A stretch of 64,000 nucleotides of DNA from Escherichia coli O157:H7 (GTDB lineage Bacteria > Pseudomonadota > Gammaproteobacteria > Enterobacterales > Enterobacteriaceae): assembly GCF_013167455.1 (NCBI RefSeq), contig NZ_CP038328.1; one strand, given 5' to 3'. Positions 15,001 through 27,000 of this stretch are shown here, one piece after another. Position 1 is the first letter of the stretch; every line of letters starts with the position of its first letter. Position numbers: made by a program.

Positions 15001-18000
15001 TACTGCTTGCTGAATCCTGAGAATGCAGTGAATCTGTATATTGCGGCTCACCCAGACGGTCGTGTAAGCGATGGCTAAACAGCGAGTTGGCTGCGGCAAT
15101 GTTGCTGATATAGCTTCCGGCCTCCGGGCGATAAACTGATGGGCCTTCCGGATCCACAACAGGGGGATTATTGATGGGATCGGGTGTATCCGCTGGCGTT
15201 ACGCCGTCCCATTTACTGGTCAGATACCAGTTTTTCTCGTCATTCCCCTTCCCTTTAGCCAGCGTGTAGACGTAAGCCCCAGCTTCGACAGTTCCGGTGG
15301 TCAGCGCGAAATTACCTGCAGAATTACCGCCAACCTCAATGAGTTCAATACCGTTGACCGTTTGCGCACCGACGCCGCCAATGTTATCAACCCGAACGCG
15401 AGTGTTCCCTTGGGTATCGCCTTTCACGTTCATCTTATCGGTGGGTGAATTATCGCCGCCCAGCGTCGCGTTGAACGTCATCAGGCCATTGTTTCCGGTA
15501 TAGTTGCCGTTAACGGTCAGTACATTCCCCGGTTTTCCTCCTTCACTGTTCATTTGAACCGTGCCGCCATTCTCCAGGTTGCCGCCGATTCGCCGATTGT
15601 GGTTTTAGCGACACGCAGTGTCCCCCCAGACATAACGTTCACATCACCTGCAGTGGTGACATTTCCCGACATCACACCGCTGTTATGGATATTAATGTGT
15701 TGACTTGCCGTATTAATGGCAGAGTCGGAACCGAAAGCAATTTCCCCCCCCACGATATCCGTCGTACCCTGATACGCCGAGGAATCGTTGTTAAGAGTCA
15801 GGATCCCGGTACCCAGTTTTGTCAAATCACCGCTACCGCTGATACTGTGCGTCATCGCCCAGCTACGCTCAGTGGAGATGGTGAGCAGGCCATTATTGAT
15901 AACGGAAGCATCACCCAGGTTTTTCTGCTCGTTGACGCTGAGCGCGCTGCCTGTATCAATGTTGAATTGCCCCACAAAGCGGCTATTATCGCCATCCAGC
16001 TCTACATCTGTCCTGGCGGTTGCGCTCACGATACCCTTCCCGCTTATGCTATTACGCAGTTCGCCAGTCACGTTTTTTAGCGTTAACAGACCGTCATTGG
16101 CAATATTTCCTCTGCCTAACCCCTGCGTATTATCGAGGCTGACTTCCGCATTTGGGCTAACGCTGGTTAACGCATTGTAGCGTGCATTAAGCCCCTCGAC
16201 AGCCAGCGTTCCCCCTGTAACATTCAGGTTTCCGCCACCTGTCAGTTCACCCTGACTGATCCCACCTTTATTTACCGTCAGCGACCCTTCTTTGAACAAA
16301 ACAGTCGAACCCATCTGCCCGGTGAATGTCTCTACCGTCTGCGTCGATCCATTAAGATCGACGATGGCTGCGTTGCTGATGTTCAGTTCCCGGGTGTTGC
16401 CCAGCGCGCCATCCGCATCGGTACGTAATGTCCCCATCTGAACGTAGGTTGCCCCCTGATAGTCGTTCTGACCGTTGGAAAGCGAAACCTGTCGCACCGT
16501 ATTGATTGCCAGATCCCCTTCACCACCGATTTTTGCCGACATATCGGCCGTTGCGCCATAGGCTCCGCCATGTTCGGCTAACGTCAGCTTTTGCCCTCCA
16601 TGGATGTTCAGCGCTTTCAGCCCATAGTTAACGTACAAACCATCACCTGGTGCGGTCGTGAGGCGGAATCCATAATCACCCTCGGCGACCACCGTTCCGT
16701 TTTGCGCAATGTGTAACGTTTTGTCCGCTTCCACCTCGTCGCCCTGTAAATCACGTAACGTTAATGAGCCACCCGACCCAATAACCGTTTGCGCCTTCAC
16801 CAGTTGAACGCCGACATGGTTATCATCGTGTTCCAGCAAATTGAGCGTCGTCAGAGGGTTATTCGCCATAGGATCATTCCACGGTTTAGGCACGCCGATA
16901 AGCACGTCGCCCGTCCCGTTTACCTGATAGTTACGGCCTTTCCAGGTGTAGTCACTCGCGCCGACAACCAGCGTATCGACGCTGATATATCCCTCTGCAA
17001 GCGTCGCAGCAGGAATATCCGTATCGAAAATGAGCGTACCGCCATTCATGGCCAGTCCACCAATGGATTGCTCTCCCACGTTTACCGATGTGGTATTTTC
17101 AATGTCAGACTGCAACATCGCGTGAGTAAGCGCAGCGGTGTTGTCGCGTTCCAGAGTGAAGGTACTGTCTTTCAGTTGGGCAACACCGGCGAATTCAGTC
17201 CCTGTTGCATGTGTAAAGCCAAACATCTTGTCGGAGGATGACAGCTGAACTCGCATCAAGCCATCGCCTTTGAGCGCATTGGTCAGCGTGTAATCTCCTG
17301 CACTGTTCGTTGATGCGAGAATGTCGAGCGTACCGGGGCTTGCAATGGTTACTTCACTCGATCCCATGCCCGTTACCCCATCTGCCGTATGAGACGCAAT
17401 GGTCAGGAGGCCGTCATTGACCAGCGTTTTACCGCTATAAGTATTCCCTGCATTGAACACCGTATGGCCTGCATCATGGATCACTTTTCCGTCTTTATCG
17501 TCACCTGTAATCAGCATATCGACCTGGTAGCCGGCATCACTGTTATTAGTATGATTAAAGACAAAAACACCTTCGCCAGAGCCAAACTCTACTTTCGTCG
17601 CGTTGGTGATAAATCCGGCATCTGCCGCCGCCTCACCGTGAGCTGCACCAATGTTTAGCGTTCCTACAGCAGGTTCAAAAACACCTAAGTAAACTTCTCC
17701 ACCTTCGACATTCAGCGTGCCGCTATTCGTCAGGGTTAACGTACCCGTACCAGATGTCCCTACGTGGGGTCGTTTGCGGGAGGGGGCGGAATCCTACGCT
17801 AAGGCTTTGGCCAGCGATATTCTCCGGTGAGATTGATGTGTTCCCATCCGAGCGGCGAAACATGGGCCAAGAGATCGGGCGATAGCAGCTTTCCATCGCG
17901 TTTCTGGTTTGCAACGACCTCGCCGAGCTTCATGGTGTTCCAGAAGATGATGATGGCGGCGAGCAGATTCATGCCGGCGATGCGGTAATGCTGGCCTTCG

Positions 18001-24000: not shown

Positions 24001-27000
24001 AATGATGAGCAATGCCTCGGAACTGCGTGGGCTACATGGCGATCTGCATCATGAAAACATCATGTTCTCCAGTCGCGGCTGGCTGGTGATAGATCCCGTC
24101 GGTCTGGTCGGTGAAGTGGGCTTTGGCGCCGCCAATATGTTCTACGATCCGGCTGACAGAGACGACCTTTGTCTCGATCCTAGACGCATTGCACAGATGG
24201 CGGACGCATTCTCTCGTGCGCTGGACGTCGATCCGCGTCGCCTGCTCGACCAGGCGTACGCTTATGGGTGCCTTTCCGCAGCTTGGAACGCGGATGGAGA
24301 AGAGGAGCAACGCGATCTAGCTATCGCGGCCGCGATCAAGCAGGTGCGACAGACGTCATACTAGATATCAAGCGACTTCTCCTATCCCCTGGGAACACAT
24401 CAATCTTACCGGAGAATATCGTTGGCCAAAGCCTTAGCGTAGGATTTCGCCCTCTCCCGCAAACGACCCCTACGTACATATTGAATGTTTCAAGAAGAGA
24501 GTTCTGCCCATCCACCCTCACGTCGCCCTTACTTTTGTCATTGAGAGCTATCTGTGTATCACGCGCTTTAACTATACCTCCGGTGGTAATATTCAGTTCA
24601 CCCGTGCCTAATACACCGACCTGTAGCAATTGGGCGTTAGTAGAAGACGTCTTTAAATTCCAGAGACTATCCGTTGAAATATTAACTATTCCCTTACCGG
24701 AGGCATTTCCTCCGATAAATCCATAGCCCGTTGAATTAAGGGTGGCACCATTACTGACATTTACGATACCGCTACCAAAATTACCGACATTGATACCCAC
24801 AGTATCGAACGACGATGTCGCATCCATCAGGTTCAGTGTGCCGATACCGCTTGCTTTATCGCCCAAAAAAGTAATATTTTGCGATACGAACTTACCGCCA
24901 TCGCTAATATTGAGGTTTCCGACGCCCGCAACACCAATGGTGGTATAGACATTCTTATTGACCTCCCATATCCCCCCCGTGGTGATGCTAACCTTCCCGA
25001 CGCCGGTTTCTCCATAACCGAGAGAGCTTCCTCCGTTGCTGACAACAAGCCCCTCATTACTGATATTCATTTCGCCGTGGCCGTCATAACCAAGATTAGT
25101 TCCGAGATTAGTGATAACGGAGTTCTTATCCTTAACAGTAAGGTTGCCTGTGCCTGTTTCTTTCATCCCCGCAGTGATAATTCCCGAATCTACTTTACCT
25201 TCACGCGAGACATTAAGTTCACCGTCGCCAGCATCACCGATATAGATATAGCGGAAAGCTTCGCCCGTTCCGAGGAAATTCCAATGCCCTTTATCGGTCA
25301 CGTTGACGACACCGTGGGAACCGTCCTGAACGCCCACCAATGAATATTCTTTGTTATTAATTAGTCCATTATTGGAAATATTGACTGCGCCATTACCGAA
25401 ATATCCATTATAGAGTCTGCGTACCGTGATGACAGAGTCTTGATCCTGCACATTCAGGGTTCCGACACCGGTGGCATTGCCACCGATAATCGTATTTTCA
25501 GCCGTAATCAGCCCACCCTCGCGAATAGTCGCCTCCCCAGTTCCTTGATTACCAATTTGAAATTCAATTGAGGAATCATTATTTTTTATTAGCCACTCGC
25601 CACCCTTTTCAACGACAACCTTACCATTACTGTTCGCTTGATATCCTAAAATGGCGACTATTGAACTCGTGACGTAACCCTTATCCGTAATATTTAATGA
25701 GCCCGTACCGTAACTCCCTATTTCGAATAATTCGGTCGTCAAAACCGAGTCCTCTCCCTCAACATTAACCGTCCCGACGCCTGCAGCTTGAGTACCTAAT
25801 CTTAAATAGCCTCCATCGACGTGACCCTTCTGTTTAATATTCAGCGTCCCCGTTCCGGATTGACCCACATTTAAAGGCCTTGCATTATTTCCGCTATCAT
25901 ACAATCGCCAGGTGCCACCCAAAACATTAACGGTACCCTCCGAATCCTCATTACCGCCAATGACGCTGGTAGTAATAGTGGTTAAGGAGGCATTACCGCC
26001 AGCCAAAATATTAAGCACTCCAGTGCCATACCAGCCAACCAGGTAGGCATCATAAGCAACATCAGTATCAATATTGGTAATCTGACCATTATCAACTTCC
26101 AGACTCGCACCAGACACTGAACCGCTTAGTGCCAGCAAAACACCCAGCGTCAATCTACTGAATTTCGTTGTCAGTCCAGAGGACTTTCGCAAATTAACCG
26201 TTGATGTTTTACCTACCCTGCGAGTTAATTCCGAGCAGGCCTGAAATACCTGTAGAGTGCAATTCCATATCACGCGATAGATTCTATTCATATAAACGCT
26301 CCAAATACAAACAATACAGCCACGAAAGAGATGAGTCGTCAGACATTAAAAATGAAATTTATTAAATTGTCAGAGGTCTGTATTGAGTGTTAGTTGGAGG
26401 TGGGAAAGTGTCAATTTGGCTAACTTGCTAATACTTTCGAATTGATAGATTAAAAATTGCATAGTTCTTATTTTATTTAAAAATGAACTATGAGTTATTG
26501 TTGCTTAATAAGAAAACTGTTTCTTTCAGTAGGAAAATTATCATCATCATATTTAACAAAGAATAGCACCAATTGCTAAAAATCGAAGTTTATTAAACCC
26601 CTTTTGCATCCATTAATGTCTTTAGGAATATTCGTTATAAAATAAGGGTTATGCTTAATGCTTTAAGAAAAATAGCAATTTCCCCTTGAATATAGTACTG
26701 GTGATGAAACGATGAATCTGCAAGCTGGCATTTAACAAGCCAGCTCTAAAAGAAGGGAAATAAGAATAACTATACTCAAAAACTAACAGCCACGGTCATC
26801 ATGATGTGGCTGTCAATGAAACTATAACCCAGGCGCTTTCCATAACGACGTCGTCAGTCCATGATCAACCAGCCCCAGCTGATCCTGATAAACTGCCTGC
26901 CACTTATCGCGTGAATCCTGATAAAGTTCATGCTTTTCCGGGTCTGGTGTGTGCGTCCGTTCCCAGCGAACCAGGCGTTCTCCGGTTTCTGCCATTGATG

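Follow-up and report, generated by a model that had tools for sequence, protein, structure and literature searches.

Tn5393 is a 6.7-kb element of the Tn3 family that comprises tnpA, tnpR, res, an IS and strA-strB (PMC10333595), and a terminal repeat of 81 bp has been cited for it (PMC6052338). Most of its copies are fragmentary (PMC7407071). Tn5393 with an IS has been associated with a raised resistance level, and the location of IS1133 differs in Tn5393i, where it lies in tnpR; the names Tn5393l and Tn5393i designate the copies of R64 and pYR1, respectively (PMC10333595).

The DNA analysed here, hereafter the window, is a stretch of 64,000 nucleotides from Escherichia coli O157:H7 (contig NZ_CP038328.1). 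It holds a chromosomal copy of a complete streptomycin-resistance transposon in FRIK1989, a Shiga-toxin-producing O157:H7 isolate from cattle. We are nearly certain that a complete Tn5393 with IS1133 transposed into the chromosome of FRIK1989 or of a very recent ancestor. Tn5393 with IS1133 is already a well-known element and its biology is ordinary; the insertion leaves the understanding of mechanisms unchanged.

Structure and identity of the element

The element occupies positions 17766-24470 (Table 1). Its length of 6705 bp and the 77/81 match between its 81-bp terminal inverted repeats, both given in the first-pass annotation, were recomputed with the same result, and a repeat finder stretches these repeats to 94 nt at 89%. 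The gene order announced there, tnpA, res, tnpR, an IS3-family element, strA and strB, was likewise recovered in full. The element shows the features of the Tn3 family, namely a DDE transposase, long inverted repeats with a 5-bp duplication, and a resolution module in which the serine resolvase gene, divergent from tnpA, adjoins a presumed res in a 125-bp spacer.

Over its full 6705 bp, the element is 99.2-100% identical to hundreds of plasmid copies, and 99.985-100% identical to complete enterobacterial plasmid copies whose annotation includes both aph genes and the transposase of IS1133. This full-length identity, with strA and strB beside the right inverted repeat, indicates that the element is Tn5393 with IS1133, as its architecture had led the first-pass annotation to propose. 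Only 79 of 5,426 complete E. coli genomes have the element covered to at least 80% at one place; complete copies are uncommon in this species. The element had also been described as more GC-rich than its flanks, which is true overall (56.9% G+C, versus 50.9% and 47.1% in the 5-kb flanks) and for tnpA (62%), tnpR (61%) and strAB (56%), but not for the IS1133 segment, at only 46%. An Rfam scan of the whole window gave no match within the element.

Table 1. Positions of the transposon, its component features and the interrupted gene in the window
Feature	Position	Strand	Details
Autotransporter 3' part (ECSE_1600 family)	14153..17765	-	RefSeq pseudogene ORM95_RS06680, 'frameshifted; incomplete'
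Left target-site duplication TACGT	17761..17765		single TACGT at empty site of other O157:H7 genomes
Left terminal inverted repeat, tnpA end	17766..17846	+	81 bp; 77/81 versus reverse complement of 24390-24470
tnpA, Tn3-family transposase, 961 aa	17799..20684	-	NCBIfam NF033527, 1022 bits (cut-off 500); WP_001138082.1
tnpA-tnpR intergenic region, presumed res	20685..20809		assigned by position; divergent genes
tnpR, serine resolvase, 207 aa	20810..21433	+	Pfam Resolvase 3-142, E = 1e-44
IS1133, IS3 family, 1232 bp	21400..22631	+	28-nt terminal inverted repeats; RefSeq IS1133-family transposase
Promoter-like site GTGGCA-18-TAAAAT in IS1133 right end, outward to strA	22567..22596	+	promoter scan
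strA = aph(3'')-Ib, 267 aa, TTG start	22725..23528	+	NF032895, 637.7 bits (cut-off 600); WP_001082319.1
strB = aph(6)-Id, 278 aa	23528..24364	+	NF012171, 385.9 bits (cut-off 325); WP_000480968.1
Right terminal inverted repeat, str end	24390..24470	-	81 bp; 77/81
Right target-site duplication TACGT	24471..24475		5 bp
Autotransporter 5' part: ESPR-type signal peptide and N-terminal passenger	24471..26291	-	RefSeq pseudogene ORM95_RS06650

Transposition genes

The NF033527 match spans residues 21-959 of the 961 in TnpA, whose gene has its stop codon within the left inverted repeat; the protein accession is common to the window, R64 and pYLMB52a. The tnpA-tnpR intergenic region contains an 11-nt direct repeat (TTGWGATACAT, at 20741 and 20801) and presumably acts as res for the resolvase. 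TnpR residues 2-188 align to gamma-delta resolvase in a solved-structure search; the protein is also homologous to Tn3 resolvases and has a weak Pfam HTH_7 match at 145-186.

The left end of IS1133 supplies the stop codon of tnpR and the 10 codons before it. Since the IS lies inside these codons, the TnpR tail is altered from residue 198 onwards, ending in ...RDHGGLASVSFRSF versus ...RDHGKHVLGLT in the common form. We assume that TnpR is active despite this altered tail, because the change comes only after the end of the catalytic and helix-turn-helix regions.

IS1133 and its allele

The IS has the characteristics of IS1133: a length of ~1.2 kb, TG...CA ends, inverted repeats, a 3-bp duplication (TGG, at 21397-21399 and 22632-22634), and overlapping frames with an A6G frameshift motif (AAAAAAG, at 21700-21706). 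Both transposase frames (21443-21739 and 21736-22593) match NF033516, and RefSeq annotates one IS1133 transposase with a programmed frameshift at 21464-22593.

In the commoner IS1133-bearing form of Tn5393, found in about 170 PLSDB plasmids, one of them from Pseudomonas syringae, IS1133 lies at the tnpR stop codon and is flanked by TAG. The window copy does not have this position: its IS1133, inside the last tnpR codons, is 25 bp upstream. The same tnpR/IS1133 junction is unbroken in R64 (NC_005014), pYR1 (NC_009139) and about 34 PLSDB plasmids. On this junction sequence, the window copy is assigned to an R64/pYR1 sub-lineage, while its broad Tn5393 membership is unaffected.

Moreover, the window IS1133 differs from the commoner form at base 4 of both ends. 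Conversion from the target, in which the IS adjoins the IS-end-like sequence AGACCATGG, was considered as the source of this change and rejected. When one genome of each species was scanned, the TGGT allele occupied four separate sites in Paenochrobactrum gallinarii and one in Brucella thiophenivorans, and its presence in other species indicates that it is a natural IS1133 allele. The match to these multi-copy Brucellaceae IS1133 ends may hint at the group in which the IS is native.

The window copy without IS1133 and one TGG equals the backbone on either side of the IS in the common form. The two IS1133 insertions share their orientation and both lie a short way upstream of strA; base 4 of each end is the sole difference between their alleles. 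The two IS1133-bearing forms could be independent captures of the IS by an IS-less Tn5393, under convergent selection for IS-driven strA-strB expression, a proposal to which we give an even chance. If it is true, the window copy would be a Tn10-free progenitor of the R64/pYR1 lineage.

Resistance genes and their expression

The start of strB overlaps the stop codon of strA, and strB ends 25 bp short of the right inverted repeat. The promoter-like site in Table 1 is the sole one found in the region versus 2.8 expected by chance; it is indistinguishable from chance, so that the scan alone is weak evidence. Because resistance is higher in the literature when an IS lies upstream, transcription of strA-strB most likely comes from the IS1133 side. 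The products StrA (APH(3'')-Ib) and StrB (APH(6)-Id) phosphorylate streptomycin.

Insertion site and interrupted gene

Inspection of the ends bore out the perfect 5-bp direct repeat TACGT that had been noticed on either side of the element, with both copies present and one at the empty site. The first-pass annotation had suggested looking for this empty site in related genomes: an 800-bp site, rebuilt by excising the element, is 100% identical in many O157:H7 chromosomes, and, of 5,426 complete E. coli genomes, 4,003 have it with at least 80% query coverage. A single genome among the 5,426, that of FRIK1989, has the occupied site together with both flanks. The surroundings are syntenic core (ydeN-yde fimbriae-hipA'-autotransporter-lsr-mar), and this gene order agrees with the earlier reading: the element is a simple insertion in a syntenic core region.

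A deletion of hipB/hipA adjoins the autotransporter gene. Its linkage to the transposon was considered and rejected, given that the junction is unbroken in many empty-site O157:H7 strains; hipBA is kept in O55:H7 and in several O157:H7 strains (e.g., PV15-279 and 493/89).

The location in a chromosomal autotransporter gene, as claimed at first, is correct, but the gene was not intact when the element arrived. The open reading frame of its 5' part extends into the right inverted repeat and is 651 codons long. When the element is excised along with one TACGT, the minus strand reads through in one frame (...LLETFNMYVGTSGTGTLTLTNSG...), so the claimed restoration of the frame holds locally; it does not extend to the whole gene, since the rebuilt autotransporter still breaks at ~15550 into frames of 1361 aa and 483 aa. 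This break in the 3' part is separate and older. The same autotransporter is marked as frameshifted in the empty-site strain PV15-279, indicating that the target was already a pseudogene; its interruption therefore probably brought no cost to the cell. The poly-C tract at 15744-15751 (C8 in the window versus C7 in PV15-279) was examined as the cause of the break and rejected: no length from 6 to 9 gives one open frame, which indicates that the autotransporter has more than one lesion.

This insertion did not turn up in literature searches on FRIK1989 and on Tn5393 with O157, and one published account of FRIK1989 makes no mention of streptomycin resistance or the transposon. The element itself is known; its site is new and specific to this strain. 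The insertion is useful as a strain marker and is a small addition to resistance epidemiology; owing to its chromosomal location, the element would be stably inherited.

Proposed history and alternatives

In the history we favour, TnpA would have used the two 81-bp inverted repeats as its substrate and cut the target at TACGT with a 5-bp stagger; of this step, the duplication and the exact empty site are observed. According to the established Tn3-family mechanism, the element would have been copied from a donor replicon by replicative transposition, and a cointegrate would have formed; the likeliest donor is a conjugative plasmid. TnpR acting at res, or host recombination, could then have resolved the cointegrate into the simple insertion observed. 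The target was the large autotransporter gene that lies between hipA and lsrK, by then a frameshifted pseudogene.

A misjoin of a plasmid-borne Tn5393 into the chromosome during assembly might be suspected, as the insertion is seen in one genome only and Tn5393 is mostly plasmid-borne (3,302 of 4,130 matching places). Such an artefact is scarcely credible: it would neither make a perfect 5-bp duplication at the exact transposon ends nor leave flanks that rejoin base for base into the empty site and its frame, and the chromosome is the only FRIK1989 record among the 30 matches listed. Import of a ready-made occupied allele from another E. coli, by homologous recombination or transduction, is very improbable. 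The flanks are indeed core genes able to recombine; however, they are 100% identical to those of other O157:H7 strains, and no other complete genome among the 5,426 has the occupied allele. Even then, the original event would still be a Tn5393 transposition.

The element could also be an intact but silent or immobile passenger, with strA-strB under-expressed, resolution impaired by the TnpR tail, or both. The genes of one Tn5393 variant were seemingly unexpressed (Cain and Hall (2011), in PMC10333595), the promoter scan was non-significant and the tail is changed. We nevertheless consider this unlikely, as all frames are intact and identical to those of widespread copies, the TnpA, StrA and StrB accessions are the same as in many plasmids, the TnpR change falls after the resolvase and helix-turn-helix regions, and IncN plasmids hold the same variant as a separate simple insertion, again with a 5-bp duplication. 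From its sequence, the transposed Tn5393 would confer streptomycin resistance, and it is probably still mobile.

Comparison with known Tn5393 forms

The Tn5393 with IS1133 of Erwinia amylovora plasmid pEa34 (type sequence M96392/M95402), the form that was described first, has the same gene order (tnpA, res, tnpR, IS1133, strA, strB); compared by description, it has 81-bp terminal repeats and a 5-bp target duplication like the window copy. The pEa34 element described by Chiou and Jones in 1993 is reportedly 6,705 bp long with a TnpA of 961 aa, as in the window.

Other close forms are plasmid-borne. The tnpR/IS1133 junction of R64 (IncI1) and of Yersinia ruckeri pYR1 is identical to that of the window, and the proteins TnpA (WP_001138082.1) and TnpR (207 aa, WP_000904897.1) of the window copy recur in R64. 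Both R64 and pYR1 carry Tn10/IS10 with tet(B) beside IS1133 (PMC10333595, Table 3). The window copy lacks this insertion and looks like a Tn10-free form. In the Salmonella Enteritidis IncN plasmids pSE79-2359 and pSE81-1607-1, the element is again 6705 bp, with 1 mismatch (99.985% identity) and the same IS1133 position; it is flanked there by GGTTA rather than TACGT. Judging from these flanks, the IncN copies are products of an independent transposition event of the same variant. Finally, Tn5393a and Tn5393c share the backbone of the window copy but have no IS1133, and a lower resistance has been reported for them (PMC10333595).

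Structure and gene content of the element

The element spans 6705 bp between two perfect copies of TACGT, and it ends in 81-bp inverted repeats that agree at 77 of 81 positions. Recomputation returned the direct repeat, the length and the inverted repeats exactly as claimed in the first-pass annotation, which had been made from sequence alone, and a repeat finder recovered the same termini as a 94-nt pair at 89%. ORF analysis revealed that six reading frames fill the element. Using curated protein models with per-model bit-score cut-offs, together with the resolvase domain, we found the announced content of tnpA, tnpR, an IS3-family element, strA and strB. 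Moreover, the TnpR frame aligns to the gamma-delta and Tn3 resolvases. The element had also been described as more GC-rich than its flanks; this holds overall (56.9% vs 50.9% and 47.1%), the excess coming from tnpA, tnpR and strAB, but not for the IS1133 segment, which has only 46% G+C.

Features of the element, in window coordinates
Feature	Position	Strand	Description
Target-site duplication, TACGT	17761-17765 and 24471-24475		Read from sequence
tnpA	17799-20684	minus	961 aa; Tn3-family transposase, 1022 bits (cut-off 500)
tnpR	20810-21433		207 aa; resolvase catalytic domain, E = 1e-44
IS1133	21400-22631		1232 bp; TGG on both sides
IS3-family transposase	21443-21739 and 21736-22593		Two overlapping frames, both by curated protein models
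strA	22725-23528		267 aa; APH(3'')-Ib, 637.7 bits (cut-off 600)
strB	23528-24364		278 aa; APH(6)-I enzyme, 385.9 bits (cut-off 325)

Tn5393 is described as a 6.7-kb Tn3-family transposon with tnpA, tnpR, res, an IS and strA-strB (PMC10333595), and its terminal repeats are 81 bp long (PMC6052338). All tested defining features of the family and of Tn5393 were found here, except IS1133 at its common site. Enterobacterial plasmid copies match all 6705 bp end to end at 99.985–100%, and a larger group does so at 99.2%. On the strength of these alignments we identify the element as Tn5393 carrying IS1133, as first proposed; it is already known, and only its insertion site, in one strain, is new.

Both StrA and StrB, which are aminoglycoside phosphotransferases, inactivate streptomycin, and an upstream IS raises the resistance level, according to a review (PMC10333595). 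A promoter-like site facing strA lies in the IS1133 right end (22567-22596); since this single site compares with 2.8 expected by chance, it is a lead only.

Insertion event and distribution

Extended by 1 kb of flank on either side, the element was fully matched in only one record among 5,426 complete E. coli genomes, the chromosome of FRIK1989 (NZ_CP111101.1), an O157:H7 strain of lineage I/II from dairy cattle (bioRxiv 10.1101/2022.09.30.510420). The empty site, which the first-pass annotation had suggested seeking in related E. coli genomes, was queried with 400 bp per side joined through a single TACGT. Many O157:H7 chromosomes match this query at 100% identity, and it was at least 80% covered in 4,003 of the 5,426 genomes, the site always falling within an annotated autotransporter gene of the ECSE_1600 family. 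The predicted frame continuity was borne out as well, the minus-strand frame continuing across the repaired junction as ...FNMYVGTSGTGTLTL... Precise ends, a 5-bp duplication and an exactly matching empty site are together the signature of Tn3-family transposition, which by the established mechanism of the family would have proceeded through a cointegrate and its resolution. The original observation is thus confirmed and its interpretation supported.

The IncN plasmids pSE79-2359 and pSE81-1607-1 carry the same variant within a different 5-bp duplication, GGTTA, indicating that this form of Tn5393 has transposed at least twice. In the IncF/IncN plasmid pSE74-1357, a copy (positions 301-7005 of the extracted locus) shares its left flank (…cggtta) but not its right flank with the IncN plasmids and lacks a matching 5-bp duplication, and the record holds a second match to the element elsewhere; this arrangement suggests a rearrangement or a cointegrate that arose via the transposon.

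E. coli seldom carries complete copies: in only 79 of 5,426 complete genomes does one place cover at least 80% of the element, in agreement with PMC7407071.

The same variant also occurs, circularly permuted, in many E. coli chromosomes from chickens, pigs and humans. It runs from the IS1133 3' part through strA, strB, the right repeat, a 1,051-bp segment carrying aph(3')-Ia, the left repeat, tnpA and tnpR to the IS1133 5' part. A match span of 7,769 bp, as in strain TUM9803 (positions 1501-9269 of its locus), was seen in 27 of the best 30 listed E. coli records. In TUM9803 the permuted element lies in a pap operon between two truncated fimbrial gene fragments (one annotated papA), with palindromes of ~50 bp at both borders, presumably paired IS10 ends; the break within IS1133 bears a 9-bp repeat, CACTCGGCT. 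The permuted form looks like a Tn10/IS10-mediated rearrangement of an element of the type found in the IncI1 plasmid R64.

The target gene and other features of the window

In PV15-279, an O157:H7 strain with the empty site, the 5.4-kb autotransporter gene is flagged as frameshifted in RefSeq, and the repaired window gene still breaks at ~15550 into frames of 1361 and 483 aa; the gene that the transposon entered had thus probably lost its function beforehand. Within this pseudogene, the poly-C tract at 15744-15751 (poly-G on the gene strand) is C8 in the window vs C7 in PV15-279, a difference that could reflect slippage or a homopolymer sequencing error. Tract length as the sole cause of the break was rejected, as lengths of 6 to 9 never restore a single frame.

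In the hipBA region, the window lacks 618 bp present in PV15-279 (junction 14038-14039; positions 2056-2673 of the PV15-279 locus), namely the whole of hipB, ~257 bp from the start of hipA and a further 95 bp upstream, so that hipA is truncated at its 5' end. Many typical O157:H7 genomes show the same junction intact, indicating a deletion that is widespread among O157:H7 genomes and unrelated to the transposon; hipBA is kept in O55:H7 and several O157:H7 strains, e.g., PV15-279 and 493/89.

Elsewhere, the Hfq-binding sRNA STnc560 of Rfam is matched over its full length next to mgtS/mgtT (52911-53124, minus strand, 281.9 bits); we take it to be the MgrR locus, and it is an ordinary core-genome feature. 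yneK (44456-45571) has an internal stop. The right window end (61181-64000) is where a prophage or IS-rich island begins to show its edge, holding a 5'-truncated ydfJ, a gene resembling dinI, a truncated transposase of the IS256 family and an IS66 accessory gene.

IS1133 position and relation to known Tn5393 forms

Differences between the window copy and the 99.2% group are confined to the surroundings of IS1133. In the common form (e.g., pYLMB52a), IS1133 is flanked by TAG, the stop codon of tnpR, and TnpR has 204 aa, whereas in the window copy IS1133 lies 25 bp upstream, flanked by TGG, so that TnpR is IS-encoded from residue 198 on. The 207-aa protein ends in ...RDHGGLASVSFRSF, vs ...RDHGKHVLGLT in the common form. 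Since this change lies beyond both the part aligned to known resolvases (residues 2-188) and a weak helix-turn-helix match (145-186), the window TnpR would be expected to work.

The IS1133 copies of the two forms are identical except for base 4 at either end (TGGT.../...ACCA in the window vs TGGA.../...TCCA in the common form). When one genome per species was searched for IS1133 left ends, all those found were of the TGGT type. Paenochrobactrum gallinarii DSM 22336 has TGGT ends at four different sites (97–100% identity over the part present) and Brucella thiophenivorans DSM 7216 has one left end, these Brucellaceae ends lying mostly at contig ends; neither allele was detected in the representative genome of any other species. 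The occurrence of TGGT at several Brucellaceae sites marks it as a natural IS1133 allele and hints at the natural host of IS1133. It also means that the two forms are most simply explained by an IS-less Tn5393 having acquired IS1133 on two separate occasions. In each IS1133-bearing form the 3-bp duplication is clean and the insertion site of the other form is untouched.

The common-form junction occurs in about 170 PLSDB plasmids, one from Pseudomonas syringae, and the window-type junction is unbroken in about 34, including R64 and Yersinia ruckeri pYR1. In Tn5393i of pYR1, IS1133 has been reported to lie elsewhere, within tnpR (PMC10333595). R64 shares both TnpA and the 207-aa TnpR with the window copy, and carries IS10/Tn10 with tet(B) after IS1133. 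The shared junction and the extra IS10/Tn10 of R64 indicate that the window copy is a Tn10-free form of a known sub-lineage. The less common position of IS1133 places the copy in the R64/pYR1 sub-lineage and does not remove it from Tn5393.
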